Source: Coleofasciculus chthonoplastes F2-STO-03
GTDB taxonomy: Bacteria > Cyanobacteriota > Cyanobacteriia > Cyanobacteriales > Coleofasciculaceae
Assembly (NCBI GenBank): GCA_040222015.1
Contig: JAVJWO010000161.1
Span: 1 to 15,845 of the forward strand
DNA: 15,845 nt
Reading direction: 5' to 3'
Shown: positions 2,266 through 14,827 of the stretch, piece by piece
Layout: every line of letters starts with the position of its first letter
Position numbering within the stretch: the stretch's first letter is position 1
The notes under the pieces: model-generated
Told to the model about the DNA's origin: nothing
What the model saw: the letters and a program-made list of their open reading frames with translations, nothing else
Database searches by the model: none
Translations under genes and position numbers: made by a program

Positions 2266-2940
2266 ATGGAACCAACAATCCGACCCAGAGTTAAAATTTG
2301 CTGCATTGGTAGCATGAACGAAGCCAATCTCGCCATTCGTTATGGCGCTGCTGCCATAGGCTTCGTATCCGAGATGCCCAGTGGACCGGGTATGGTGTCT
2401 GAAGGCTTGATTGCCCAAGTCAGCGCTAAAGTCCCTCCGGGTGTCTCATCATTTCTGCTCACCAGTAAATTTGATACCTTAGCGATTATTGCTCAACAAC
2501 GACGCTTAGGCGTCAACACGATTCAGATTTGCGATCGCCTACAGTGGGGAAGCCATGATGATTTACGTCAGGCATTACCAGGGATTGCCATTGTCCAAGC
2601 GATTCATATCACCAGCGAAGCCGCGATCGAGGAAGCGTTAGCCGTTGCCCCCTCTGTTTCCGCGTTGATACTCGATTCGGGGAATCCCCTGTTACCAGAG
2701 AAAGAACTGGGCAGAACCGGGCGAGTTCATGATTGGACGATTAGCCGACGCATCCGGGAATTAGTCAATGTGCCTGTTTTTTTAGCTGGCGGACTCACTC
2801 CAGAGAATGTCAAGGATGCGATTCAAGCAGTTCAACCCTTTGGTGTGGATGTCTGTAGTGGGGTTCGCACGAATGGCAAATTAGATGAGGGTAAACTCTC
2901 TGAGTTCTTCAATCAAGTGTACAAAAGTTTCAGCACTTAG
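2266..2940 (+). CDS. trpF: Phosphoribosylanthranilate isomerase (TrpF family), 224 aa
   Basis: Motifs VKICCI, ILDSG, GRTGRVHDW, LAGGLTPENV and PFGVDVCSGV. Start moved from 2158 to ATG 2266 because AGGAAG lies just upstream and the ORF-track extension translates the REP element. Confidence 0.88.
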   Translation: MEPTIRPRVKICCIGSMNEANLAIRYGAAAIGFVSEMPSGPGMVSEGLIAQVSAKVPPGVSSFLLTSKFDTLAIIAQQRRLGVNTIQICDRLQWGSHDDLRQALPGIAIVQAIHITSEAAIEEALAVAPSVSALILDSGNPLLPEKELGRTGRVHDWTISRRIRELVNVPVFLAGGLTPENVKDAIQAVQPFGVDVCSGVRTNGKLDEGKLSEFFNQVYKSFST

Positions 2941-2980
2941 TTATGTTGAAACATTGGGATATCATCGTTTTACCAAATAA

Positions 2981-3071
2981 TAGGACTTACGCAAAGCCTC
3001 TATGTGTAGGGTGTGTTAGCGCAGCGTAACCCACCTTTCCCCCCATCAGTGGTGTGTCTGTGTAAGTCCTG
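2981..3071. mobile_element. MITE-like element with an internal REP hairpin
   Basis: Inverted ends AGGACTTACGCA (2982-2993) and TGTGTAAGTCCT (3059-3070). AATAA direct repeat on both flanks (2976-2980, 3072-3076). Internal GTAGGGTGTGTTAGCGCAGCGTAACCCACC hairpin (3006-3035). Confidence 0.65.
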
Positions 3072-3315
3072 AATAAGTAGGTTGGTGGAAATAAACTCAA
3101 CTCTATTAAATTATGTGAAAAAGCCGGATCTGTTATAAATGCTACCAAGTACATGTTACTATCTATACAAAGTTAAATTCAAAGAAATAACTTTTTCTCC
3201 CCCTGCTTCAGGAACGTCACCGTGTCACAGATTCCCCTTGTCCTCTCCTCTGGCTATCTACATTGATATTTTTTTCCCAGAGAATAGAGCGATAGACGCA
3301 GGGCTGTGCAATTTT

Positions 3316-3321
3316 GAGGAG
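3316..3321 (+). promoter_or_regulatory. Shine-Dalgarno sequence for pepM
   Basis: GAGGAG 5 nt upstream of ATG 3327. Confidence 0.7.
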
Positions 3322-3326
3322 TACAG

Positions 3327-4964
3327 ATGACCATAACAGCACAACCTAGAAAAACAACACAACTTAGAGCCTTGCTGAATTCTAAGCAGTTAGAGTTTCT
3401 GATCGAAGCCCATGATGGAATCAGCGCTAAGATTGCTCAAGAGGCAGACTTTAAGGGCATTTGGGGTAGTGGTCTGAGCATTTCTGCCCAGTTGGGTGTG
3501 CGTGATAACAACGAAGCCAGTTGGACTCAAGTCTTGGAAGTGGTTGAGTTCATGTCCGATGCCACTTCTATCCCAATTCTGCTGGATGGGGATACGGGCT
3601 ACGGAAATTTTAACAATGTGCAACGCTTGGTCAAAAAATTAGAGCAGCGTGGTGTGGCGGGTGTCTGTATTGAGGACAAACTCTTCCCCAAAACCAATAG
3701 CTTTATAAAAGGCACAGCTCAGCCCCTGGCTGACATGGACGAGTTCTGCGGCAAAATAAAGGCAGCTAAAGATGCCCAAAGTGATGATGAATTTGTCTTA
3801 ATTGCTCGGGTAGAAGCCTTTATTGCCGGTTGGGGACTCTCGGAAGCATTAAGACGAGCGATCGCCTATTACGATGCGGGAGCGGATGGCATTTTAATCC
3901 ATAGTGCCTTGCATGTGCCTGATGAAGTGTTGGCTTTTAAACGGGAATGGGGCGATCGCGCACCTGTGGTGATTGTCCCCACTAAGTATTACGCAACACC
4001 GACTGAGGTTTTTCGAGATGCGGGGTTCTCCATCGCTATTTGGGCAAATCAGCTCATTCGAGCTTCTGTTACCATGACCCAAAAGGTAGCTCAGACGTTA
4101 ATGCTAGAGCAGAACCTGCTGAATGTCGAAGACGAGATCGTCCCTGTTTCCGAGATTTTTCGGCTTCAAGGCGTTGCCGAACACCAGGAAGCGGAGCAGC
4201 GCTATTTACCCCAGAACGGTGATTGTGGGAGCCGCACGATTCTACTAGCCGCCTCCCGGGGGATTGAATTGGGTGAGTTCACTAAAGATAAACCCAAGTG
4301 CATGGTAGATCTACAAGGGGAACCCCTCTTATCAAGGATTGTGGAAGAGCATTACAGTGTCGGTATTCAAGACATCACTGTTGTCCGTGGCTACAAAAAG
4401 GAAGTTGTCAACTTACCTAGCCTCGATTATGTCGATAACGACGACTATGACACCACCGGTGAACTCGTTTCCCTGAGTCGAGGCTTGCAGGAGTTGCCCC
4501 AAGACGGACAAGATTGGATCATTAGCTACGGTGATGTTCTGTTCAAGACGTACATTCTGCAAATGCTGTTAGCGGCTGAGCATGACTTTGTGGTGATTAT
4601 AGATTCGAGTCAGCACCGCCAAACTCAGCAAATCCGACCCGATTACGTTGCCTGTTCTCTCCCCGACTCGACTCAGGCATTTTATCAGAATATTTATCTA
4701 CACCAAATCACTCATAACCTCGGTGATCAGGAAATCTGTGGTCTATGGACTGGATTGCTGAAAGTTTCCCCACAGGGGCAGCCAGGACTAAAGGATACCC
4801 TTAATACTCTGCTCCAGTCAGAGAACGTGCGGCAACAGGGTCGAATGCCGACTCTGATTAATGAGTTGATCGCCCGTGGCTATCCAGTACATGTGCTTTA
4901 CATTAAAGGACATTGGCTCGACATCGATCAAGTCGAAGATCTATTCAAGGCGGGAAATTTCTAG
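3327..4964 (+). CDS. pepM: Phosphoenolpyruvate mutase fused to a C-terminal NTP-transferase (cytidylyltransferase-like) domain
   Basis: Diagnostic PepM motif EDKxxxxxNS ([10 protein letters not shown]), plus [13 protein letters not shown] and VPTKY. After about aa 300 come [29 protein letters not shown] and WLDID, which fit a nucleotidyltransferase fold. Confidence 0.95.
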
Positions 4965-6107
4965 ATGATCAAATCCGAATACTTTATCCAAGCCGCCCAG
5001 AAAAAGGGTTTTGGGTTATACACTGGCGTGCCCTGCTCCTACCTCAAATCTTTTATTAACACCGTGATTGACTCGGAGCATCTCCGCTATGTCGGGGCTG
5101 CCAATGAAGGGGATGCTGTCGCGATCGCCTCCGGTGCAGAGTTGGCTGGAGTCAAGGGTGTGGTCATGTTTCAGAATTCGGGGTTTGGCAATGCGGTTAA
5201 TCCCCTCACCTCTCTGACTCACACGTTTAAGATTCCCATCCTGGTGATTGTCACCTGGCGAGGACAACCGGGTGGTGCACCGGACGAACCCCAACACCAG
5301 CTTATGGGAATGATTACTCCTCAATTACTCGATCTAATCCAAGTGCCATGGGAACTTTTTCCCACGGAAATAGACCAAGTGGAGCCGACTTTGGATCGGG
5401 CTGTTGCCCATATGCAGCAGCATCAGACGCCCTATGCCCTGGTGATGCAAAAAGGGTCCGTGGAATCTTGCCCATTAAGCTCTCAACTGGCGATGAAACC
5501 CCAGCCAATCTCCCCGACTAATCTGCCTCTGCAACAGGCTCCTGCTTTCACTCGTTGTGACATCCTTCAAGCTATCCAAGCAGGAACCGATCCCGATGAC
5601 ATTCTGTTGGCGACGACGGGTTATACCGGTCGGGAATTGTATGCGATTGAAGACCGAAGCAACCAACTATATATGGTAGGTTCTATGGGGTGTGTATCCA
5701 GTCTAGGCTTGGGCGTCGCTCTGGCTCAACCTCACCGTCGGGTGATTGCGATCGATGGCGATGGTGCTGCGTTGATGCGCTTGGGAGCTTTCGCCACCAT
5801 TGGTTATGAACGTCCGCCCAACTTGCTGCATATTCTTCTGGATAATCAGAGGCATGAATCGACAGGGGGACAGTCTACAGTGTCTGCCTCGATCAATTTT
5901 GGCGCGATCGCAAAAGCCTGTGGTTACGAACAGGTTGCTGTAGCCACAACCCCTGAACAGGTGAAAGCTTTGACTCAACACCCATCCGAGCAATTAATGT
6001 TCATTCACGTCAAAATCAAGCCTGGTATTCCTGACAAATTACCTCGCCCCAAAATCACCCCCCTAGAGGTGGCTCAACGTCTACGGCAATTTATACAAGC
6101 CCGATAA
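4965..6107 (+). CDS. ppd: Phosphonopyruvate decarboxylase (thiamine diphosphate dependent)
   Basis: Motifs TGVPCSYLK, AANEGDAVA, QNSGFGNAVNPLTSL, DEPQH, GSMGC and the ThDP-binding DGDGA...N..HESTGGQ. Its ATG directly follows the pepM stop codon. Confidence 0.95.
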   Translation: MIKSEYFIQAAQKKGFGLYTGVPCSYLKSFINTVIDSEHLRYVGAANEGDAVAIASGAELAGVKGVVMFQNSGFGNAVNPLTSLTHTFKIPILVIVTWRGQPGGAPDEPQHQLMGMITPQLLDLIQVPWELFPTEIDQVEPTLDRAVAHMQQHQTPYALVMQKGSVESCPLSSQLAMKPQPISPTNLPLQQAPAFTRCDILQAIQAGTDPDDILLATTGYTGRELYAIEDRSNQLYMVGSMGCVSSLGLGVALAQPHRRVIAIDGDGAALMRLGAFATIGYERPPNLLHILLDNQRHESTGGQSTVSASINFGAIAKACGYEQVAVATTPEQVKALTQHPSEQLMFIHVKIKPGIPDKLPRPKITPLEVAQRLRQFIQAR

Positions 6108-6158
6108 TCACACCTTGATTCGATCTGAATCTAGCCAAACCCTAAGCTCTAAGACAAA

Positions 6159-7262
6159 ATGAACCGGACGATCTTACTCAACCCTGGTCCCGTTACCCTC
6201 AGCGATCGCGTGCGTCGCGCCTTGCTCCAGCCAGACTTGTGCCATCGTGAACCTGAGTTTGCTGAACTTACCCTGGATATCAAAGCACGCCTAGCCAAGG
6301 TGTATCCCGCAGCAGCTGAGGACTATGACGCTATTTTACTTACCGGTTCGGGCACTTGTGCCGTAGAGGCAATGCTATCAACCCTTGTGCCTCATGATGG
6401 CAAAGCTCTGGTGGTAACAAATGGGGTCTATGGTGAACGCATGGCAGCGATGATTAAAGCCCATGGTAAGTCCCTGGAGATGGTTACGGCTCCCTGGCAC
6501 GAGCCAATGAACCTAAAGGCAGTTGAAACTTGTCTGAAGATGGATTCAGCCATTACCCATGTGATTGCCGTTCATCACGAAACCACCACTGGACGACTCA
6601 ATGATGTGGCTCAGTTAGGACAAATCTGTCAGCGTTACAATGTAGCGCTACTGCTTGATACTGTCTCCAGTTTTGGGGCTGAGGCGATCGAGTTTGCCCC
6701 TTGGAATTTAGCAGCCTGTGCCGCAACTGCTAATAAATGCTTGCATGGTGTACCGGGTATATCATTCGTATTGGTCAAGCGATCGATTTTTGAGACTCGC
6801 CCCTCTGCCGCTGGAACCGTATACTTAGACCTCTATCGCTATCATCAAGAGCAGGTAAAGGGTTATTCTCCCTTTACTCAAGCTGTACAAGTCGCCTATG
6901 CGCTCCAGGAAGCCCTCAAAGAGATGGAAGAAATGGGGGGGATAACCGCTAGACATAATCATTACCAGCAGCGTGCTCTTAAGATTCTGCAAGCTTTGCA
7001 AAAACTGGGGATTCAACCACTCTTGGATGTCCAAGATTATAGCTGTGTTCTGACTTCTTTTAAATTGCCCCCAGGCTACAGCTATGACCAAATCCATGAC
7101 ACGCTGAAAGCATCCGGTTTTGTGATTTATGCGGGGCAGGGGGGATTCAAAAACCAGATTTTCCGGATAGCCAACATGGGTGATATCCAACCGAGTGATC
7201 TAGAGCGTTTACTGGCTTGTTGTCATGCTTTGTTTAAGCCAAGCAGGATAACATACCAGTAA
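6159..7262 (+). CDS. aepZ: 2-aminoethylphosphonate aminotransferase (PhnW/AepZ family, class V PLP enzyme)
   Basis: Motifs LLNPGP, GSGT, NGVYGER, HHETTTG, DTVSSFG, ANKCLHGVPG (PLP lysine), FVIYAGQG and FRIANMG. Located directly after pepM-ppd. Confidence 0.92.
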   Translation: MNRTILLNPGPVTLSDRVRRALLQPDLCHREPEFAELTLDIKARLAKVYPAAAEDYDAILLTGSGTCAVEAMLSTLVPHDGKALVVTNGVYGERMAAMIKAHGKSLEMVTAPWHEPMNLKAVETCLKMDSAITHVIAVHHETTTGRLNDVAQLGQICQRYNVALLLDTVSSFGAEAIEFAPWNLAACAATANKCLHGVPGISFVLVKRSIFETRPSAAGTVYLDLYRYHQEQVKGYSPFTQAVQVAYALQEALKEMEEMGGITARHNHYQQRALKILQALQKLGIQPLLDVQDYSCVLTSFKLPPGYSYDQIHDTLKASGFVIYAGQGGFKNQIFRIANMGDIQPSDLERLLACCHALFKPSRITYQ

Positions 7263-7310
7263 TTTTTTGGAAGTGCCAGAAGGTATTCACTGATTTTACA
7301 AGATGTATTT

Positions 7311-7988
7311 ATGCAGGTTAAAAAGGAAGCTATTTTTTTAGATTTTGATGGGGTAATCGTAGATTCTCTTGAAGAATGGTATCACATTGGCGTACTTGCC
7401 TATCATGGTATCGACCAAGCTATTCCTGATAATCAACATAAAGAATTATATAAAGATAATTGCCATCTTCTTTATTCCTATGCAGATGAATATTGTTTGT
7501 TCAAAGCCTTAGAAAATCAAACCATAAAAGACTTTACAACAATTAGGAAAAACGCCAATCAAAAAGAAGTTGATACTTATAGTCAAGAATTCAAAAAAAT
7601 TAGAAAGTTTTATCAAAACAATCATTTAGACTGGTGGTGTGAGTTACATGGTCTTACCGATTATGGAAAAAGACTGACAAATCCCCAAAACACCAAAGAT
7701 TATTTTATTATAACTCGTAAGAATATGGATGATGTTTTAATCTTAAAAAAACATTTCAATATTAAAATCCCCGATATAAAAGTATTTGATTATAGTCATT
7801 CTGTCAAATATGGTGGGAAAGTAGATTTTATTGAAAGGTTTTTAGATAACCATCCAGACTATAATAAGGCGGTTCTAGTTGATGATAAAATAGAGAATTT
7901 GTGTGAATCTTCAAAAGTTACGTGTTATTTCGCCTCTTGGGGTTATGGTAAAGGAAATAATGAATTTGAAACATATCAGGGGAGTTAA
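7311..7988 (+). CDS. HAD-superfamily hydrolase or phosphotransferase
   Basis: Motif I DFDGVIVDS, motif II IITRK, motif IV VDDKIENL and C-terminal ASWGY. AT-rich coding sequence. Confidence 0.8.
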   Translation: MQVKKEAIFLDFDGVIVDSLEEWYHIGVLAYHGIDQAIPDNQHKELYKDNCHLLYSYADEYCLFKALENQTIKDFTTIRKNANQKEVDTYSQEFKKIRKFYQNNHLDWWCELHGLTDYGKRLTNPQNTKDYFIITRKNMDDVLILKKHFNIKIPDIKVFDYSHSVKYGGKVDFIERFLDNHPDYNKAVLVDDKIENLCESSKVTCYFASWGYGKGNNEFETYQGS

Positions 7989-8003
7989 ACGCTAATAAAA
8001 CTG

Positions 8004-9017
8004 ATGAATTGTAGATTGCAAATATCAAGAAATCCAATGTATGAATGCATAAAGACAATCATAGAAAATGAAAAAATTGACGGGATTGTTATCGGGCCAA
8101 CTGTCTATTTAATGAACTGCTTTTCTCCTATTTATAACCACGTCAGACAAAGCAAGCTTCCGGTTACTGTACCCAAATTCCCTTTAACGTATTCAAATAT
8201 TGACAAATTTATGTTTCCTGCCAGCGGTCAACGCTTTTTAGTTTTTGGAGGGGGGAAGCTCATCGATTTTACAAAAATTTGTGCCCAACGAGATCAAGTT
8301 TCTTTAATCGTATTGTTATCTTCTATTTCAAATGATGGGTTTTCATCTAGTTTTAGTTCCTTAAAGCCAGATGAAAAGTCATATAATCAGAGTTATAAAT
8401 CAAAACCACCTAAAGCTGTTTATGCTTGTTTGCCATTATTAAACAAGTACATGCCACATAAGTTTTGGGTTAGCGGCTTGGGTGAATTATTATCAAAATT
8501 GAATGTATGGGAAGACTTGAAAATTGACAATAAAGTCAAGGAATTTGATGAAAAGCCCTTTCATCAAATTGAACACTTTATACAAGAATACACTGGCAGA
8601 AATGAAAGGTCATTAATCGAAATAATCAAACAACTTTACTCATTTTCTATATTAATGAAAAATGATAGTAGTTGGTGTAGTCGTTCTGAACACGAATTTG
8701 AGAAGCTATATGCAGATAGTCAAGCCTCACATGGTAAATTAGTTTTGATGGGTGCTTTAGTTGCCATGAAAATAAGATCTATATATAAATTACCTCACTT
8801 ATATGAACGTTTATTGGTTGATTGTCGAAAATTAGAAATAAGTCTGGATTTAAAACAAGAGTTTGATTCTATGATAGAATTAAATACTTACAAAAGAATG
8901 AAAAATCTATCTTATGTAAGACCTGAAAGATTTGGCTTGTGGAATCTTGTAGATTCTACAAGCATTGACTGGAAAACAATCATCAAAGAAATACAAAAGG
9001 AGTTATACATATTGTGA
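8004..9017 (+). CDS. Glycerol-1-phosphate dehydrogenase-like protein (EgsA/AraM branch of the DHQ synthase / iron-alcohol dehydrogenase superfamily), divergent
   Basis: GGGKLIDFTK (NAD-binding GGGxxxDxxK), SNDGFSS, GLGELLSK, RSEH and SHGKLV match the G1PDH motifs GGGKxIDxAK, SHDGIAS, GDxxS, GSEH and HGxQV. Confidence 0.7.
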   Translation: MNCRLQISRNPMYECIKTIIENEKIDGIVIGPTVYLMNCFSPIYNHVRQSKLPVTVPKFPLTYSNIDKFMFPASGQRFLVFGGGKLIDFTKICAQRDQVSLIVLLSSISNDGFSSSFSSLKPDEKSYNQSYKSKPPKAVYACLPLLNKYMPHKFWVSGLGELLSKLNVWEDLKIDNKVKEFDEKPFHQIEHFIQEYTGRNERSLIEIIKQLYSFSILMKNDSSWCSRSEHEFEKLYADSQASHGKLVLMGALVAMKIRSIYKLPHLYERLLVDCRKLEISLDLKQEFDSMIELNTYKRMKNLSYVRPERFGLWNLVDSTSIDWKTIIKEIQKELYIL

Positions 9018-9721
9018 TTAAACCGAATCACATTACATTATTTAGATTGATTTTAATTTGTCTAGCTTTTGCCTCTTGGTATCTTGTTAACCCTCAACAA
9101 TATCCATATATCGGCATTTTATTCTATATCGCATTTTTATTAGATGCTGTTGATGGGTGGTTGGCTAGAACAAAGGACTTAAAAACAGATTTCGGTAAGT
9201 ATTTTGATCCAATCGTAGACTATATAGCATTCCTAGCTTTATATATCATTAGCATTGAAATGGGAATTCTCCCTCTATGGTTTGTTTTTCTAGCTCTGAC
9301 GAGAGATTTTTTAGCAACATTTGCCAGACAAATATTAAACTTAAACAGTATTGTGATTGAATCTAATGTTATTGCTAAATTAAAAGCAGTATACATTGGC
9401 TATCCTTTAGTGGGGCTTTATTGGTATCAAATTTATGGATTTTCCAGCCAATGGTTGTTTATTTTTATTGGTTTGCACATCCTCATAGAAGGTCGAATCT
9501 TTGGATATTCTGATCCTTTAGAAAATCGTTGGAACTTGATCATATTGTGTTTAGCGACTATTGCAGTGGTTACATTAACTAGCTTAAGACCTGCAAGTGA
9601 TAGTTTTTCTGATATGACTATATTATTCATCCTGATCACTCAATCATTGATCTGGGTGTCTGGTATTAAATATTTATGGGATGCCAGAGAATATATCATC
9701 AAATCATTTGAAGCTAAATGA
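9014..9721 (+). CDS. CDP-alcohol phosphotransferase family membrane protein (PgsA-like)
   Basis: N-terminal PNHITLFR, full signature DAVDGWLAR-x7-GKYFDPIVD and several hydrophobic helices. The GTG start overlaps the upstream stop (GTGA). Confidence 0.9.
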   Translation: MIKPNHITLFRLILICLAFASWYLVNPQQYPYIGILFYIAFLLDAVDGWLARTKDLKTDFGKYFDPIVDYIAFLALYIISIEMGILPLWFVFLALTRDFLATFARQILNLNSIVIESNVIAKLKAVYIGYPLVGLYWYQIYGFSSQWLFIFIGLHILIEGRIFGYSDPLENRWNLIILCLATIAVVTLTSLRPASDSFSDMTILFILITQSLIWVSGIKYLWDAREYIIKSFEAK

Positions 9722-9831
9722 TCGAAATCAATCTGATTTAACCTCAAGAAAACCATGTTATAATAATCGCAGCTACACTGTGACCAAAATTAAGAAGCAA
9801 GTAATTAGAGTTAGGAAAAACAGAGGATATC

Positions 9832-10479
9832 ATGGACAACAATCAACAATCTCAATTTTTTGCTAAGTGGTCTAAAGGAGGAAGTACTCAGAGCAGTGAG
9901 GTTGAGAAAGAATATGATACTCTAGCTCAAGTGTATGAGGAGAAGGTCTTAAATTGGAATTATGCCTGCCATCAAATCGCGGCTGAATTAAGCGTCAAAT
10001 TTGTGGCGACTGAGGGGAAAATATTGGATCTCGGATGTGGGACAGGATTGGCTGGACAAGCCCTTCGGGAACAAGGTTATCAAACCATAGTTGGAGTTGA
10101 TATTTCTCAAAAAGCTTTAGCCATTGCGAGGGATAAAGATATTTACACTGCTCTACATAAAGCCGATATACAGCAAGGATTGCCATTTGAAGATCACGAA
10201 TTTGCTGGAATCATTTGCACGGCTGTACTGACTTGTATGGAAACGCCAGATGTGTTGTATGAATTCTGCCGAGTCGTTAAACCGGGAGGGTATGTGTTAT
10301 TTACAAACCGAGAGGATATCCACTATCAAAAAAAATTCGATGTTACCTTGCAAAAGATGGAGTCAGAAGGCATTTTAAAACCAGCCTATCTTTCGCCACC
10401 ACAACCCTATCTACCCAATCATGATGAGTATGCTGAGAAGATCAAAGTTCTTTATTGTGCCTATCAGTTGTGCATTTGA
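9832..10479 (+). CDS. Class I SAM-dependent methyltransferase
   Basis: Motifs ILDLGCGTG, VGVDIS, LPFEDHEF and RVVKPGG. GAGG RBS just upstream. Confidence 0.9.
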   Translation: MDNNQQSQFFAKWSKGGSTQSSEVEKEYDTLAQVYEEKVLNWNYACHQIAAELSVKFVATEGKILDLGCGTGLAGQALREQGYQTIVGVDISQKALAIARDKDIYTALHKADIQQGLPFEDHEFAGIICTAVLTCMETPDVLYEFCRVVKPGGYVLFTNREDIHYQKKFDVTLQKMESEGILKPAYLSPPQPYLPNHDEYAEKIKVLYCAYQLCI

Positions 10480-10552
10480 TGTCTCTGGGGGCTGTTGGCG
10501 AAACCGGCGCCAGCCCATAGTACCGGAGATTCTAAAAGGTCGTTAATTCACA

Positions 10553-10658
10553 TACAGCGTTTTCCATGCTGGTGAGGTACATTGAGAATAAGACTTTGGC
10601 GCTCACAGAGGCTAACCTCGTCTTGTTACTGTACCTCACTAGACCGAGAAATGCTGTA
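10553..10658. repeat. Palindromic small dispersed repeat (about 106 bp) between convergent genes
   Basis: Inverted arms TACAGCGTTTTC (10553-10564) / GAAATGCTGTA (10648-10658) and GTGAGGTACA (10572-10581) / TGTACCTCAC (10630-10639). Confidence 0.75.
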
Positions 10659-10677
10659 AACAAAAAGATGAAGGCTC

Positions 10678-11517
10678 TCAACTTTGTTTCTTGTAAGCAT
10701 AAACAAAGCTTGTTTGCCCAAATTTTTGGCGCAGACTTTCCCGGTGATCAAGATACTGAACAATGCTTCCATCCTTGTTCATATTTTGAACTCGCTCCAA
10801 TGCTTGTTCTAATTCCGCTTGTGTCGCCAAAGACCAAGTAGAATCACCATTCCGATAGGTTTGCTTGAGGGGACCTTCTGGGTCAAGATAATTGTCACCT
10901 TGCATCACAGCGTGAATTGGGACGACAATGCCTCCAAAGGAAAAGCCAGCTTGATCTAACCTCTCGGTAATGCATGTTATTGGTGGAAAACGTTTAGCTA
11001 TTCTCGATACCGCGTCTGGAATCAGATCTGCCCACCAAAATCCATCATAAACCTGTTGATGACTGCTAGTATTACACACAAACACACCTTGGGGACGCAG
11101 CACTCGATATGCTTGCTCAAACGCCTGATTCAGTTCAGGAAAATTTTCCCCAGCTGCGTTCTCCGAACCCAAGTGATGGAGAACTTGGTTACACATTATC
11201 CCATCAAAGGTGTCATTCTCATAGGGAAGATCGGTAAGACTGCCTTGAGCTAAGTGAATATTGGGGTGATTGTGGAACTTTTCTGTTGCTTGCGCCAGCA
11301 TTCCCCGATTGAATTCTAGACCCCACAGGCTATTGACTTTGCTCTTCAACGCCTGGATATAGTTTCCAGTACCACACCCACCATCTAAGATTACCTGTTC
11401 TAGCAAAGGACGAGGGTTAGTCGCAAAGCAACCCAATAAAATCTCAATCCCGATTGGAATACGAGTCGTGTCGTAGCTTTTGGATGTATTTTGATAGTTT
11501 TCATATTCCTTGATCAT
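10678..11517 (-). CDS. Class I SAM-dependent methyltransferase
   Basis: Motifs ILDGGCGTG, LPYENDTFD, NQVLHHL and RVLRPQG; 279 aa. Confidence 0.9.
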   Translation of the reverse strand: MIKEYENYQNTSKSYDTTRIPIGIEILLGCFATNPRPLLEQVILDGGCGTGNYIQALKSKVNSLWGLEFNRGMLAQATEKFHNHPNIHLAQGSLTDLPYENDTFDGIMCNQVLHHLGSENAAGENFPELNQAFEQAYRVLRPQGVFVCNTSSHQQVYDGFWWADLIPDAVSRIAKRFPPITCITERLDQAGFSFGGIVVPIHAVMQGDNYLDPEGPLKQTYRNGDSTWSLATQAELEQALERVQNMNKDGSIVQYLDHRESLRQKFGQTSFVYAYKKQS

Positions 11518-11598
11518 GTCTTTGCTTGCACCATTCTCGGTATTATAGAGATGTTATAGCCACAATACCGTTTAAATATATCGATTCATAAACCACGA

Positions 11599-12345
11599 AT
11601 GAAAGTAAAAACCGCCGTTATTCTTGCTGCTGGCATGGGTACTCGACTGAAGGAAATAGGGAAAGCCGCCCCTAAAGGATTTCTTCAGTTGGGAGATAGA
11701 CCTATTATTGAAGAATCGATAGAGCAACTGACCGACTGTGGTATTCAGCATATCATCATTGTAACTGGTCATTTATCGGAATTTTATCAGCGTTTGCAGC
11801 AACGTTGCCATGATCAGATGCTCACAATCGTTCATAATCCATACTATGCTGACTCAGGTAGCATGTATTCCCTTTATTGTGCCCGCGAGTTGATTGAGAG
11901 TGATTTTTTGCTGTTGGAATCAGATATAATTTACGAACGGCGTGCCTTATCGACAGTCTCCAATTTCCCTAAGGATAATGTCGTTTTACTATCTGGCACA
12001 ACGAACGCTGGCGACGAAGTCTATGTCGGAACTTCAGGTGATACCATTGTCACAATGTCTAAAAGCAAGGCGGAAATTGGGCAAAGAATTGCTGGTGAAT
12101 TGGTCGGTATTTCTAAAATATCTTATCCCTTGTTTGAAAGGATGTTAGGGTTAGCCAGCTTAAGATTTAAAGTTGACTTGATGATGGACTATGAAACTGA
12201 CGCGCTGATAGCAGCAGCAAAGTCCTATCCAGTTTACTATACTGTCATTAGCGATCTACTTTGGGCAGAAATTGATGATCAAAGTCATCTTGTCAGAGCG
12301 AAAAATCAAATATATCCAGCAATTATTCAGAAAGATTTTCAGTAA
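11599..12345 (+). CDS. Phosphocholine or phosphonate cytidylyltransferase (LicC/PntC-like)
   Basis: Motifs AVILAAGMGTRL, PKG, NPYYADSGSMYSL, LLLESDIIY, GELVGISK and WAEIDD. Confidence 0.85.
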   Translation: MKVKTAVILAAGMGTRLKEIGKAAPKGFLQLGDRPIIEESIEQLTDCGIQHIIIVTGHLSEFYQRLQQRCHDQMLTIVHNPYYADSGSMYSLYCARELIESDFLLLESDIIYERRALSTVSNFPKDNVVLLSGTTNAGDEVYVGTSGDTIVTMSKSKAEIGQRIAGELVGISKISYPLFERMLGLASLRFKVDLMMDYETDALIAAAKSYPVYYTVISDLLWAEIDDQSHLVRAKNQIYPAIIQKDFQ

Positions 12346-12520
12346 GTTCAATCACACTTGTTCCCCCATTTGGATAGTTGTTTTCAACTCACATCTTGCA
12401 CGCTTTTCCCAGTTGTGTAGCCAATAAACGTCAACGGTTAACTCATGGGCTTTATTCCATTCTTTCAACTTGCGAAAATCCGTCATAACTCCAATTCTTT
12501 TTTCCTCATCAATTGGCTAA

Positions 12521-12577
12521 ATTGTTCATCATTCATAGCCACAAAAACCATGAACAATGAACAATAAACAATCAACC
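12521..12577. repeat. Heptamer repeats (ATGAACA-type, 4 copies) with an inverted copy; possible terminator or stabilising hairpin for the GH57 gene
   Basis: ATTGTTCAT (12521-12529) is the reverse complement of ATGAACAAT. The tandem atgaaca atgaaca ataaaca atcaacc (12550-12577) lies just past the GH57 stop. Confidence 0.55.
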
Positions 12578-12580
12578 CAT

Positions 12581-14827
12581 TTACGGCACCTGTAACCCCA
12601 CCAATTTATCCTCTGGAATATAACTATGGAACATCCCATTATCCGCAGAAACCATCACCAACTGTAGCAGATAATCCGGTTCCACCTGCAAATCTGCCCA
12701 GGGTACAGCCACTTCTAAACATTGCTTCAGCGCAACTTGGGCGCGACTGGTGCGGGGATGCCAGTGATAATAGTCTGCGGCTTCTTCTAACCAAGTCGAA
12801 CCAGTTAACAAATTAATTCCTAAGTGATGGTGAAACAAATAGTTGACCGGCGCAGTATCAGGAACCTCAGCTAAAGGGGCTGGACTATTGTTAACCGTTC
12901 GATTCGGATAAAACCATAATAAATGCAATTCCGGAGGAATATCCTGACCAATTTTAATCCCGGCTTGAAAATCCAATCGCAGGTAAAAATTCAGGTGATC
13001 CAACCCATACCATAACCGTTGAATCGCACTACTCCGGTGCATCGTTCCCCGTGCGCCACCGACATCAATTCGACCCGCTTTATCCCAATCTTGCTCATCG
13101 CCCAAGCCATCAATCACCGGATGAATAAAACTCAGGGGTCGGTGATCACCTTTCGATTCGTAGGTGTCTAGGGGTTGGGTAAGACTAGCCGGAATTGGTT
13201 CATTTAATGCCTCATAAATCCCAGTCAAATGTTCCCGGAATAACTGGTCAAAAATAGCATCTTGGTTGGATGAATGACCCTCACCAAACCACCAGAACCA
13301 ATCTGATCCTTCCGCTGCATACAAGGCTTCCCAGACTTCCGGATTATTTTCCGGTGTGGCTTCGGGATGATTAGCTAAGGTTTGCCGCGCTTGGGTGAGT
13401 AAATCCCATGCCCGATTTTTAACTGGATCACCAATCCAAGTGGTAAAGCTACCATCCACCCATGATCCACTATGGAGTCGATCTGCTGGAAGTGTGGCGG
13501 TGGGGGGAAACTGATCCAGAAATTCCGACACCGTGACCAATTTTATCTGAGGATGCGCCGAGAGTTTTTCATACAGTGAGGTGAGGAAAGGAATCCCGTC
13601 TTTTTGGTAGAATTCCCAGCAATTTTCCCCATCCAAGGCAATGGTTACCAACCACGGTTGATCTAATCCAGTCCCTCCCTCTGGCTGTCGGCGTTGGATG
13701 GAACGGGAAATCGCTTCTAAGTGACTGACAAAATCCGTTGACGCCTGCTTGGGTTCCATTGACCCGTAGGAAAAGCCAATTAAATCCGATAAGCGGTGAT
13801 CGCGAAACACAATAGCCAAGTTCCCCTGCGGTGTCTCTAAGCGGTAGGGGCGATACAGCAATGTGGGTTCCATCAGGGTTCCGGTTTCATCCCGGTGGAA
13901 AAAGTGCTGCACTGTCCACCCCAATACTGCTTCATCGGAACAAATCCACTTAAATCCCGCCTCAGCAATATAGGGTAAAATTTTCGGACTCACCGACTGT
14001 TCTGAGGGCCACAAGCCGCGTGGTGTCCGTCCAAATCGTTCTTCATACATCTGCCATGCTTTTTGCAGATGACGGGGAATATCTTCTTCCCACTGGAAAC
14101 GCTGTTGCGGTAATGTCATATCCGGAATCGCCACCCGCCCGGAATCCGTATTTGCCAGTAAGGGTAAAATCGGGTGAGTATAGGGCGTTGTTGTCACCTC
14201 CAACTGACCCGCCTCCTGCATCTGGCGATGTTGAGGAATAATCCGCTTGAGGATATCTCGTTGTTTAGAATAAATGCGTTGGCGATCGCTTAATGTAAAG
14301 TTTTGTCCTTTTTTCAACCAAGCGGCAATCTCTGGGTCATCCCAGAATATTGGGTCAATCCACGCCAAATTATGCCATGCCAGTAAATCGCTGAAATCCT
14401 GATGCGTCCAATGATCTGCACACCAAGTTTTCCCACGTTCTTGCCGCATCTCGTATAACTCAGCATATCGAGGATGAGGGTCAATCAGGGTACGGTGATT
14501 GGCATCAAAAAAATGCTCAACAATAAACTGTCGTTGATCCGGCTTGAGTTGGTCGGTTGGCGTCAGGGTCAACTCCAGATAGGGGTCAAAGGCTGTCCCC
14601 GCCATGTAATCTTCCAACTGCAAAATCAACGATGGTACCAAGTTGACCGTTTGGTGCAACTTCGGATAGCGCTCTAACAATAGCACTAAATCCAAATAAT
14701 CTTTCGTCCCATGCAGCCGCGCCCAAGGGAGGCGATACCGTCCATTTGAGCCGGACACGCTGTTGCGACTTTTATAGAGGGGTTGATGCTGATGCCAGAT
14801 AAAGGCGACGTATAATGGATGACTCAT
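12581..14827 (-). CDS. Glycoside hydrolase family 57 (amylopullulanase/alpha-amylase type)
   Basis: GH57 conserved regions WHQHQP, EVTTTPYTHPILPL, WPSE (nucleophile), LDGENCWE (acid/base) and AEGSDWFWW. Confidence 0.92.
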   Translation of the reverse strand: MSHPLYVAFIWHQHQPLYKSRNSVSGSNGRYRLPWARLHGTKDYLDLVLLLERYPKLHQTVNLVPSLILQLEDYMAGTAFDPYLELTLTPTDQLKPDQRQFIVEHFFDANHRTLIDPHPRYAELYEMRQERGKTWCADHWTHQDFSDLLAWHNLAWIDPIFWDDPEIAAWLKKGQNFTLSDRQRIYSKQRDILKRIIPQHRQMQEAGQLEVTTTPYTHPILPLLANTDSGRVAIPDMTLPQQRFQWEEDIPRHLQKAWQMYEERFGRTPRGLWPSEQSVSPKILPYIAEAGFKWICSDEAVLGWTVQHFFHRDETGTLMEPTLLYRPYRLETPQGNLAIVFRDHRLSDLIGFSYGSMEPKQASTDFVSHLEAISRSIQRRQPEGGTGLDQPWLVTIALDGENCWEFYQKDGIPFLTSLYEKLSAHPQIKLVTVSEFLDQFPPTATLPADRLHSGSWVDGSFTTWIGDPVKNRAWDLLTQARQTLANHPEATPENNPEVWEALYAAEGSDWFWWFGEGHSSNQDAIFDQLFREHLTGIYEALNEPIPASLTQPLDTYESKGDHRPLSFIHPVIDGLGDEQDWDKAGRIDVGGARGTMHRSSAIQRLWYGLDHLNFYLRLDFQAGIKIGQDIPPELHLLWFYPNRTVNNSPAPLAEVPDTAPVNYLFHHHLGINLLTGSTWLEEAADYYHWHPRTSRAQVALKQCLEVAVPWADLQVEPDYLLQLVMVSADNGMFHSYIPEDKLVGLQVP

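Follow-up and report, generated by a model that had tools for sequence, protein, structure and literature searches.

A cyanobacterial 2-aminoethylphosphonate gene cluster with a low-GC module that may direct CMP-aminoethylphosphonate to glycerol phosphate

Gene content and layout of the cluster

The DNA analyzed here, referred to throughout as the window, is one whole contig of 15,845 bases from the 7.7 Mb genome of the cyanobacterium Coleofasciculus chthonoplastes F2-STO-03 (completeness 99.99%), and the proteins it encodes have their closest relatives in Coleofasciculus and Moorena. At positions 3327-12345 it carries nine intact open reading frames (ORFs), separated by short spacers, which form a phosphonate gene cluster (Table 1), and this report concerns the product that these genes might build from 2-aminoethylphosphonate (AEP). 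Eight of the genes lie on the plus strand, with MT2 alone on the minus strand. The start of ppd falls on the very next base after the pepM stop codon, and the GTG start of the CDP-alcohol phosphotransferase (CDP-OH transferase) gene overlaps the stop of the glycerol-1-phosphate dehydrogenase (G1PDH)-like gene by 4 bases. An original prediction, made from the letters of the window, had named all nine genes at these coordinates, and every ORF was found present and intact, with the call of a HAD-type protein founded on motifs and weak folds. The typical cyanobacterial flanks that it described on both sides were also recovered, in the form of DUF3352, PRA isomerase, GH57, and NifU-like genes.

Table 1. 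Genes of the phosphonate cluster, in order along the window.
Feature	Position	Strand	Basis
PEP mutase (PepM, residues ∼1-295) fused to MobA-like nucleotidyltransferase domain (∼300-545)	3327..4964	+	TIGR02320, PF12804
Phosphonopyruvate decarboxylase (Ppd)	4965..6107	+	TIGR03297
AEP aminotransferase (aept)	6159..7262	+	TIGR03301
HAD-superfamily phosphatase-like, unnamed subfamily; first low-GC gene (30.4% GC)	7311..7988	+	motifs
G1PDH-like NAD(P) enzyme, divergent	8004..9017	+	PF13685, fold, motifs
Class I CDP-OH transferase, membrane protein, GTG start	9014..9721	+	PF01066
S-adenosylmethionine-dependent methyltransferase MT1, class I	9832..10479	+	Methyltransf_11, E 1.4e-18
S-adenosylmethionine-dependent methyltransferase MT2, class I	10678..11517	-	Methyltransf_11, E 2.3e-21
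PntC-type phosphonate cytidylyltransferase	11599..12345	+	PF12804; homology to Treponema denticola PntC

The base composition of the cluster is a mosaic. The HAD, G1PDH-like, and CDP-OH transferase genes (7311-9721, hereafter the module) have a GC content of 30-33%, with 24-28% at third codon positions, and the phosphonate core and flanks have 48-51%, with MT1, MT2, and pntC at 41-44%. An identical mosaic is present in the related clusters of Lyngbya and Moorena described below. In the window and in two of those loci (L002 and L003), whose proteins have diverged by 12-23%, the module has 27-33% GC amid neighbors of 48-53%, and despite that species divergence its low GC content shows no drift toward the host value.

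Judged from the ORF list and Pfam matches, the window holds no glycosyltransferase, LicD, non-ribosomal peptide synthetase, or transporter gene, as originally stated, and the cluster holds no flippase or exporter gene. A LicD gene was also not found anywhere in the source genome.

Core enzymes and the low-GC module

Families were assigned by Pfam and NCBIfam profile searches, with each match judged against its own (equivalog) cut-off. The PepM part of the first gene scored 375.8 bits on TIGR02320 (cut-off 319.55) and carries at residue 116 the EDKxxxxxNS motif, which PMC6697681 gives as a PepM motif. Ppd scored 433.4 bits on TIGR03297 (cut-off 312.5), with residues 15-377 aligned to profile positions 1-360, and the aminotransferase scored 384.4 bits on TIGR03301 (PhnW-AepZ; cut-off 360.8). 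These three equivalog-level matches support the earlier assignment of an encoded route from phosphoenolpyruvate (PEP) through phosphonopyruvate and phosphonoacetaldehyde to AEP.

The cluster encodes two nucleotidyltransferases. The domain fused to PepM matched PF12804 (NTP_transf_3) with an E-value of 3.2e-12 and gave no match at E ≤ 0.01 to the crystallized PntC of Treponema denticola (PDB 6PD1). The stand-alone enzyme matched the same structure at E 1.5e-48 over residues 3-245 (243 residues), and by this comparison the fused domain is much more distant from PntC. Residues E107 and E199 of the stand-alone enzyme align with E104 and E196 of the T. denticola protein, which, according to Rice et al. 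(2019; PMC6697681), contact the AEP amine and are replaced by Asp in the phosphocholine enzyme LicC. The presence of both amine-binding Glu residues in a PntC homolog supports the predicted activation of AEP with cytidine monophosphate (CMP), giving CMP-AEP.

The CDP-OH transferase is the only recognizable transferase in the cluster. It matched PF01066 (CDP-OH_P_transf) at 91.9 bits (cut-off 22), with the D(x)2DG(x)2AR(x)8G(x)3D(x)3D motif complete from D44 to D69, and scored 74.2 bits on TIGR00560 (pgsA), which is under the cut-off of 109.1. Its nearest families were pgsA, archaetidylinositol-phosphate synthase, and di-inositol-phosphate phosphate (DIPP) synthase, all below their cut-offs, and a protein atlas queried with the transferase returned only generic CDP-OH clusters with scores below 0.9. 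The genome has a second CDP-OH gene on contig C55, a housekeeping PgsA-like gene with 137 bits to PF01066. The full motif, the presence of this copy in addition to the PgsA-like gene, and the failure to find LicD agree with the original view of this enzyme as the transferase of the pathway. To look for residues that might bind the acceptor, the protein was aligned with Staphylococcus aureus PgsA. N5, R52, and K122 correspond to the CDP/donor contacts N5, R65, and K135 of that enzyme, and the PgsA residues R110, R118, and K137 have as their counterparts R97, R105 (an R or K position in the family), and K124. According to PMC8640168, K83, R110, R118, K137, and Y181 of S. aureus PgsA hold the 3′-phosphate of the glycerol-phosphate head group; Y181 falls outside the mapping, and three of the four mappable residues are retained.

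The G1PDH-like protein matched PF13685 (Fe-ADH_2) at 44.3 bits (cut-off 28). Its model (pLDDT 79) had 3CE9, the Methanocaldococcus jannaschii G1PDH 4RGQ, 5FB3, and AraM (9H4X) as best folds, with TM-scores of 0.58-0.72, and the protein keeps the GGGxxxD, SNDG, SxSEH, and HG motifs. The HAD-type protein reached the threshold of no Pfam or NCBIfam family. Its motifs I-IV (DxDG, T135, K, DD191-192) are invariant in all 11 aligned relatives, and an exhaustive profile search returned 424 relatives at E ≤ 1e-3, with 82 at E ≤ 1e-10; among 24 sampled relatives, most matched PF00702 or HAD_2, weakly. The top Foldseek matches to its model, which was built from a shallow alignment, were all of the HAD superfamily, with weak TM-scores of 0.35-0.40. 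Word-indexed homolog searches with the HAD-type protein and the transferase returned relatives of the Moorena, Coleofasciculus, and Lyngbya type and a single weak match besides.

Distribution of the cluster and of its module

To find relatives, an alignment of the G1PDH-like protein was used in a pattern scan of ∼185,000 species genomes, which returned eight loci. Four are cyanobacterial (one in Lyngbya, three in Moorena), with proteins 76-93% identical to those of the window and with differing flanks. The full nine-gene set is conserved in these records except that of Moorena producens 3L (L005), in which the contig starts at the G1PDH-like gene and the first half of the cluster lies on another contig. 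Since the same cluster is found in different flanking contexts, the nine genes move as a unit. The remaining four loci are proteobacterial (three Magnetococcales, one Parabeggiatoa), with module proteins 29-38% identical, and here the set consists of the CDP-OH transferase, the G1PDH-like gene, and a PF12804 nucleotidyltransferase. G1PDH-like proteins at 33-34% identity also occur in metagenomes (P0017-P0020). The G1PDH-like match in a complete Moorena genome (G190:C1:4186982-4187977) contains one TAG, which may be the natural stop or a break.

In all eight loci, at most one gene separates the CDP-OH transferase from the G1PDH-like gene, and in seven of the eight a PF12804-type nucleotidyltransferase comes one or two genes later; in M. 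producens 3L, two inserted genes precede PntC, which is ∼2.3 kb further on. A phosphatase gene adjoins the pair in six of eight loci, as the HAD gene in the window and L002-L004, and as an IMPase-family gene in L006 and L009, with L005 not scorable because its contig ends inside the G1PDH-like gene. In the latter two, which are half of the proteobacterial loci, the IMPase-family gene lies between the transferase and the G1PDH-like gene, and a phosphatase of an unrelated superfamily is therefore found in the place of the HAD gene. The nucleotidyltransferase of the Magnetococcales module is closest to inositol-1-phosphate cytidylyltransferase (IPCT; 2XME, E 4.4e-9), and the one that follows the Parabeggiatoa module is 67.5% identical to the window's PntC over the 77 residues on its contig.

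All cyanobacterial carriers of the module have PepM in the cluster. Among the four proteobacterial carriers, two have PepM above the cut-off, one has a fragment at a contig end (79.6% identical to the window's PepM), and one, a metagenome-assembled genome (MAG), has none detected. One Magnetococcales genome has a pepM-nucleotidyltransferase/ppd/aept/pntC operon, with proteins 53-61% identical, on a contig other than that of the module. When 201 genomes of the window's order were sampled, the G1PDH-like gene was found in three, the window's own and a pair from one other genus, and all three were among the six with a true PepM. The window's genus is represented by two more genomes, and these had neither a true PepM nor the G1PDH-like gene. 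The cluster is thus an accessory island that combines a widespread core with a rare module, and its carriers belong to Coleofasciculus, Moorena, and Lyngbya.

In two other cyanobacteria, the same four-gene core occurs without the module, beside HlyD/ABC/FtsX exporter genes. One of them has glycosyltransferases, and in the other a myo-inositol-1-phosphate synthase gene (L026:2892-3992, in G127:C3) lies near the core and the HlyD, ABC (cNMP-binding), and FtsX genes, which may be another pairing of this core with a polyol phosphate. Several further genes were seen around the relatives of the cluster. In one Moorena MAG, a TPR-LicD-like gene (L004:3601-4659) lies directly upstream of pepM; it has an in-frame stop at 4300-4302, and its N-terminal part is a weak match to the LicD-family cholinephosphotransferase Mf1 (38.8 bits). 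In M. producens 3L, an Asp/Arg-hydroxylase-family gene and two more methyltransferase genes lie around pntC (L005:3553-4401, 4646-5344, and 6402-7229), and the hydroxylase bears a weak resemblance to OlsC/LpxO (82 and 58.7 bits). In one Magnetococcales MAG, an LPG_synthase_TM (HpnL-type) gene (L006:16361-17365) lies ∼4.5 kb downstream of the module, behind thymidylate-synthase-like, HAD, ParB-CE, and dCTP-deaminase genes. A CysM gene that follows the Magnetococcales module, above the CysM cut-off, was set aside as probably a mere neighbor.

Magnetococcales also carry a second phosphonate cluster, at L017 (G003:C177:22000-41000) and L018 (G002:C55). It has pepM-nucleotidyltransferase and ppd genes, a PF01467 cytidylyltransferase, a PF00465 Fe-alcohol dehydrogenase (PhpC-like), a B12-radical-SAM enzyme, another CDP-alcohol phosphotransferase, and a polysaccharide-flippase-like gene, which suggests a surface phosphonate derived from hydroxyethylphosphonate and possibly C-methylated.

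The related clusters also bear on methylation. MT1 copies are 80-81% identical in four related clusters and MT2 copies 87-90%, and the Moorena clusters contain one or two further methyltransferase genes. A search for solved relatives that might indicate methyltransferase substrates returned just METTL27 (the best relative of MT1, E 1.3e-14) and unassigned structural-genomics proteins, and was uninformative. The TmpA/TmpB pathway for 2-(trimethylammonio)ethylphosphonate is reportedly catabolic. A TmpA-type gene (NF049936, cut-off 400) nevertheless sits inside the biosynthetic cluster of two Moorena genomes (G206, 400.7 bits; G190, 391.7 bits), with aept on one side and the HAD gene on the other, and no TmpB-type partner was present among the Pfam-scanned neighbors. 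Neither the window nor its genome has TmpA at equivalog level; the best matches of the genome to the TmpA model scored 189 and 148 bits and are adjacent TauD/gamma-butyrobetaine-hydroxylase-like genes on another contig (C208:16020-17920). Because two Moorena versions carry this TmpA-like trimethyl-AEP dioxygenase, N-methylation of the AEP moiety is likely in the cluster family, and the Moorena genes point to a trimethylated form. The methylated product foreseen in the original prediction thus gains indirect support from Moorena, although the substrates of MT1 and MT2 themselves could not be assigned from sequence. PntC enzymes sterically exclude the trimethylammonium group of phosphocholine, according to PMC6697681, and because of this exclusion and the retention of the amine-binding Glu pair, methylation would probably follow activation or transfer.

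Proposed product and alternatives

In several known pathways, a CDP-activated group is transferred to a polyol phosphate and a phosphatase then acts on the product, as is the case for PgsA with the phosphatidylglycerol-phosphate phosphatase, for phosphatidylinositol-phosphate (PIP) synthase with its phosphatase (PMC4634129), and for the di-inositol-phosphate route with IPCT/DIPP synthase and IMPase (PMC1224877). We consider this scheme for the cluster because the transferase travels with a nucleotidyltransferase, a G1PDH-like gene, and usually a phosphatase. Since the scheme fits and most of the mapped PgsA contacts are retained, CMP-AEP is proposed as the donor and glycerol phosphate as the acceptor. 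AEP, made from PEP by three enzymes with equivalog-level family membership, would react with CTP to form CMP-AEP through the action of PntC, as its close homology to a characterized enzyme suggests, and the G1PDH-like enzyme, judging by fold and motifs, would convert dihydroxyacetone phosphate to glycerol phosphate, probably the sn-1 form. The transferase would then combine the two to give AEP-glycerol phosphate and CMP, and the HAD-type phosphatase would take off the terminal phosphate to leave glyceryl-AEP. N-methylation by MT1 and MT2, at some stage of the route, might extend up to a trimethyl, choline-like form. The route would end in a small, zwitterionic phosphonate ester of glycerol, which could be soluble or could serve as the precursor of a head group, and its logic would be that of phosphatidylglycerol, phosphatidylinositol, and di-inositol-phosphate synthesis with the CDP donor replaced by CMP-AEP. 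We regard this outcome, the transfer of CMP-AEP to glycerol phosphate followed by dephosphorylation to glyceryl-AEP, as a real possibility whose chance is somewhat short of even.

The cluster resembles the PgsA, PIP synthase, and DIPP synthase pathways in having a nucleotidyltransferase, a CDP-OH transferase, a polyol-phosphate supplier, a phosphatase, and candidate acceptor-phosphate residues of the PgsA type. It differs from them in its predicted donor, a CMP-phosphonate instead of CDP-diacylglycerol or CDP-inositol, and in the two extra helices of the transferase discussed below. On the fused IPCT/DIPP synthase model (NF041135, cut-off 580), PntC scored 72.4 bits and the transferase 32.5 bits, and in the window these two genes are separate. 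A bolder version, which we consider doubtful, is that glyceryl-(trimethyl)aminoethylphosphonate, the phosphonate counterpart of glycerophosphocholine, is made by mat-forming cyanobacteria of the sea as a compatible solute or as a phosphatase-proof store of phosphorus, with CMP-AEP entering a pathway in the style of di-inositol or diglycerol phosphate synthesis; the Magnetococcales module with its own nucleotidyltransferase would then represent the genes for a solute of the diglycerol-phosphate type.

Several observations weigh against glyceryl-AEP as the product. The G1PDH-like protein scores 61.8 bits on the G1PDH model NF002022, far below the cut-off of 413, and its GxGD motif reads GLGE, with Glu replacing a metal-ligand Asp in all 11 family members, so its substrate is a prediction only. 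The HAD assignment is founded on motifs, and the model of that protein is poor (pLDDT 60). Two of the four proteobacterial loci (L007 and L008) have no phosphatase gene adjoining the module, MT1 and MT2 have no informative solved relatives, and the steric bar of PntC to trimethylammonium (PMC6697681) complicates the placement of methylation in the route. The OlsC/LpxO-like gene of M. producens 3L and the broken LicD-like gene of the Moorena MAG hint at other acceptors. In the transferase itself, the PgsA phosphate contact K83 is replaced by Y70 in the window and by His in the proteobacterial copies, the retention of R97, R105, and K124 was judged by comparison with PgsA alone and may not be specific to phosphorylated acceptors, and ∼8 hydrophobic helices are predicted, two more than in the six-helix enzymes with soluble acceptors. 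Such additional C-terminal helices have been linked to lipid acceptors (Clarke et al., PMC4634129).

Because of this helix count and the comparison of basic residues with PgsA alone, a diacylglycerol phosphonolipid stays a serious rival, although we consider it rather unlikely. In a Kennedy-type pathway of this sort, the AEP-phosphonyl group would be placed on diacylglycerol or another membrane lipid (a glycolipid or phosphatidylglycerol) and then N-methylated, as PmtA does with phosphatidylethanolamine, and the G1PDH-like and HAD proteins would serve some secondary purpose, for instance to supply glycerol. A CDP-OH gene next to pepM is what underlies the 'Group 1 phosphonolipid' prediction (PMC8942020) and the interpretation of a Nostoc cluster (PMC5987646). 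MT1 is a weak match to the phospholipid N-methyltransferase PmtA (36.2 bits, cut-off 390), and the weakly scoring hydroxylase of M. producens 3L would fit such a product as well. A phosphonolipid, however, leaves unexplained the most tightly linked genes of the cluster, the G1PDH-like gene with its 4-base overlap and a phosphatase drawn from two families, and the nearest families of the transferase and its conserved basic residues fit the acceptor as a phosphorylated polyol. The window also lacks the acyltransferase or LPG_synthase_TM/HpnL-type gene of Group 1 clusters, for which no bacterial phosphonolipid had been characterized by 2022 (PMC8942020). The original prediction had left the choice between a phosphonolipid and a glycero-phosphonate ester, and the evidence favors the ester, because the module travels with the G1PDH-like gene and a phosphatase of two unrelated forms, and because three of the acceptor-phosphate residues of PgsA are retained in the transferase; the diacylglycerol lipid is the less supported part.

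Other acceptors and other roles of the module were also weighed. It is improbable, in our estimate, that CMP-AEP or its methylated form decorates a glycan, glycolipid, hopanoid-type polyol, or protein made outside the cluster, with the glycerol-phosphate step making a linker as in teichoic-acid-like structures. Characterized PntC systems do lie in cell-surface glycan contexts (PMC6697681), and in the other cyanobacteria the four-gene core lies by exporters, in one case with glycosyltransferases. The LicD-like gene beside pepM in the Moorena MAG could be taken in the same way, but it is interrupted by a stop, and the search of the window's genome yielded no LicD. Genes for a glycosyltransferase, flippase, or exporter are absent from the window cluster itself, and it is the module, not any glycan gene, that stays linked across phyla. 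Still less probable is an independent module that merely sits inside the phosphonate cluster and makes its own glycerol-phosphate-based product, for instance a solute resembling diglycerol phosphate or a phosphatidylglycerol of unusual type. Its distinct GC content, the Magnetococcales loci that have an IPCT-like nucleotidyltransferase of their own and no nearby pepM, and the module-bearing MAG with no PepM detected are what one would expect from independence. Against this, the cyanobacterial module has lost its own nucleotidyltransferase and lies between aept and pntC in every version, the Parabeggiatoa module is followed by a close relative of the window's PntC, and PepM is present in three of the four proteobacterial and all of the cyanobacterial carriers, compared with 6 of 201 genomes of the order. 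We give least weight, as very improbable, to an action of the G1PDH-like enzyme on a phosphonate, for example the conversion of phosphonoacetaldehyde to 2-hydroxyethylphosphonate, the hydroxyl of which would be the alcohol used by the transferase. Other phosphonate pathways do use metal-dependent alcohol dehydrogenases of this superfamily for such a step (PhpC; PMC8942020), and the low G1PDH score and the altered metal ligand would allow it. The protein nevertheless retains the G1PDH-specific motifs SNDG and SxSEH, its best folds are G1PDHs and not Fe-alcohol dehydrogenases, the true PhpC-type enzyme of the second Magnetococcales cluster belongs to another Pfam family (PF00465), and the phosphatase would be left without a role.

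Yu et al. (2013), as cited by others, are said to have described Group 1 phosphonolipid or 'Burkholderiales_CDP-OH' pepM neighborhoods, and the supplement of that study may already list the M. producens 3L cluster. The products of Group 1 clusters are uncharacterized (Li and Horsman, 2022, PMC8942020), as is that of a phosphonolipid-type cluster in a lichen Nostoc (Gagunashvili and Andresson, 2018, PMC5987646). That different cluster of 2018 means that a carbon-phosphorus lipid cluster in a cyanobacterium would not be a first; the original prediction had called such a lipid notable. As for the comparison of gene neighborhoods that it had proposed, the likeness is partial. The window shares with Group 1 and the lichen Nostoc cluster the PepM-nucleotidyltransferase fusion, Ppd, AEP transaminase, a second, PntC-type nucleotidyltransferase, and a CDP-OH transferase. 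Their 2-oxoglutarate/Fe(II) oxygenase and LPG_synthase_TM/HpnL-type membrane gene (PMC8942020, PMC5987646) are absent from the window, which adds the G1PDH-like gene, the HAD gene, and two methyltransferases, so that by gene content the cluster differs from both. The Pnt pathway of T. denticola and Atopobium rimae has the same PntC Glu pair and both a PepM-fused and a separate nucleotidyltransferase (Fig. 3c of Rice et al., 2019; PMC6697681), but there CMP-AEP is passed to LicD-like or glycosyltransferase machinery, whereas the window has only the CDP-OH transferase. In the open-access literature, which was the extent of the search, we found neither a described pepM cluster with a G1PDH-like gene nor a characterized transferase that uses CMP-AEP as donor.

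The tailoring of lipids or glycans is the presumed role of about half of the phosphonate gene clusters in bacteria, and the steps after CMP-AEP are established for almost none of them (PMC8942020, PMC6697681). The present cluster, which is small and self-contained and lies in a genome where no LicD was found, offers a direct test case for a CDP-OH transferase acting on a CMP-phosphonate. With glycerol phosphate as the acceptor, the cluster would yield a new class of natural phosphonate ester, and a polyol-phosphodiester pathway would have been re-aimed by the swap of a nucleotidyltransferase. In that case, aminophosphonates from benthic marine cyanobacteria, perhaps in trimethylated form, would feed the marine phosphorus redox cycle.

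The window was also examined for minor features and for expression. An Rfam scan of the window gave no matches, and scans of positions 2800-12700 gave 26 promoter-like sites (23.4 expected) and 4 terminator-like sites (8.5 expected), both uninformative. An additional ORF of 91 amino acids (10566-10841, plus strand) matches no family and runs across the 3′ end of the oppositely oriented MT2; it is probably not a gene. One sediment metatranscriptome contained contigs 97-100% identical to the window, covering 3237-4954, 5169-5675, 6082-6380, 6597-6727, 9794-9981, and 10539-10672, that is, the pepM-nucleotidyltransferase gene, parts of ppd and aept, and MT1. Positions 6728-9793, which include the module, were uncovered by these contigs, which cannot show absence, transcript starts or ends, or levels. 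Among other libraries, X4 had no pieces, X5 had two short pieces, and X2, whose library type is undefined, had a relative of 90-95% identity. Carry-over of DNA being possible, the sediment contigs hint at transcription of a near-identical cluster in the environment.

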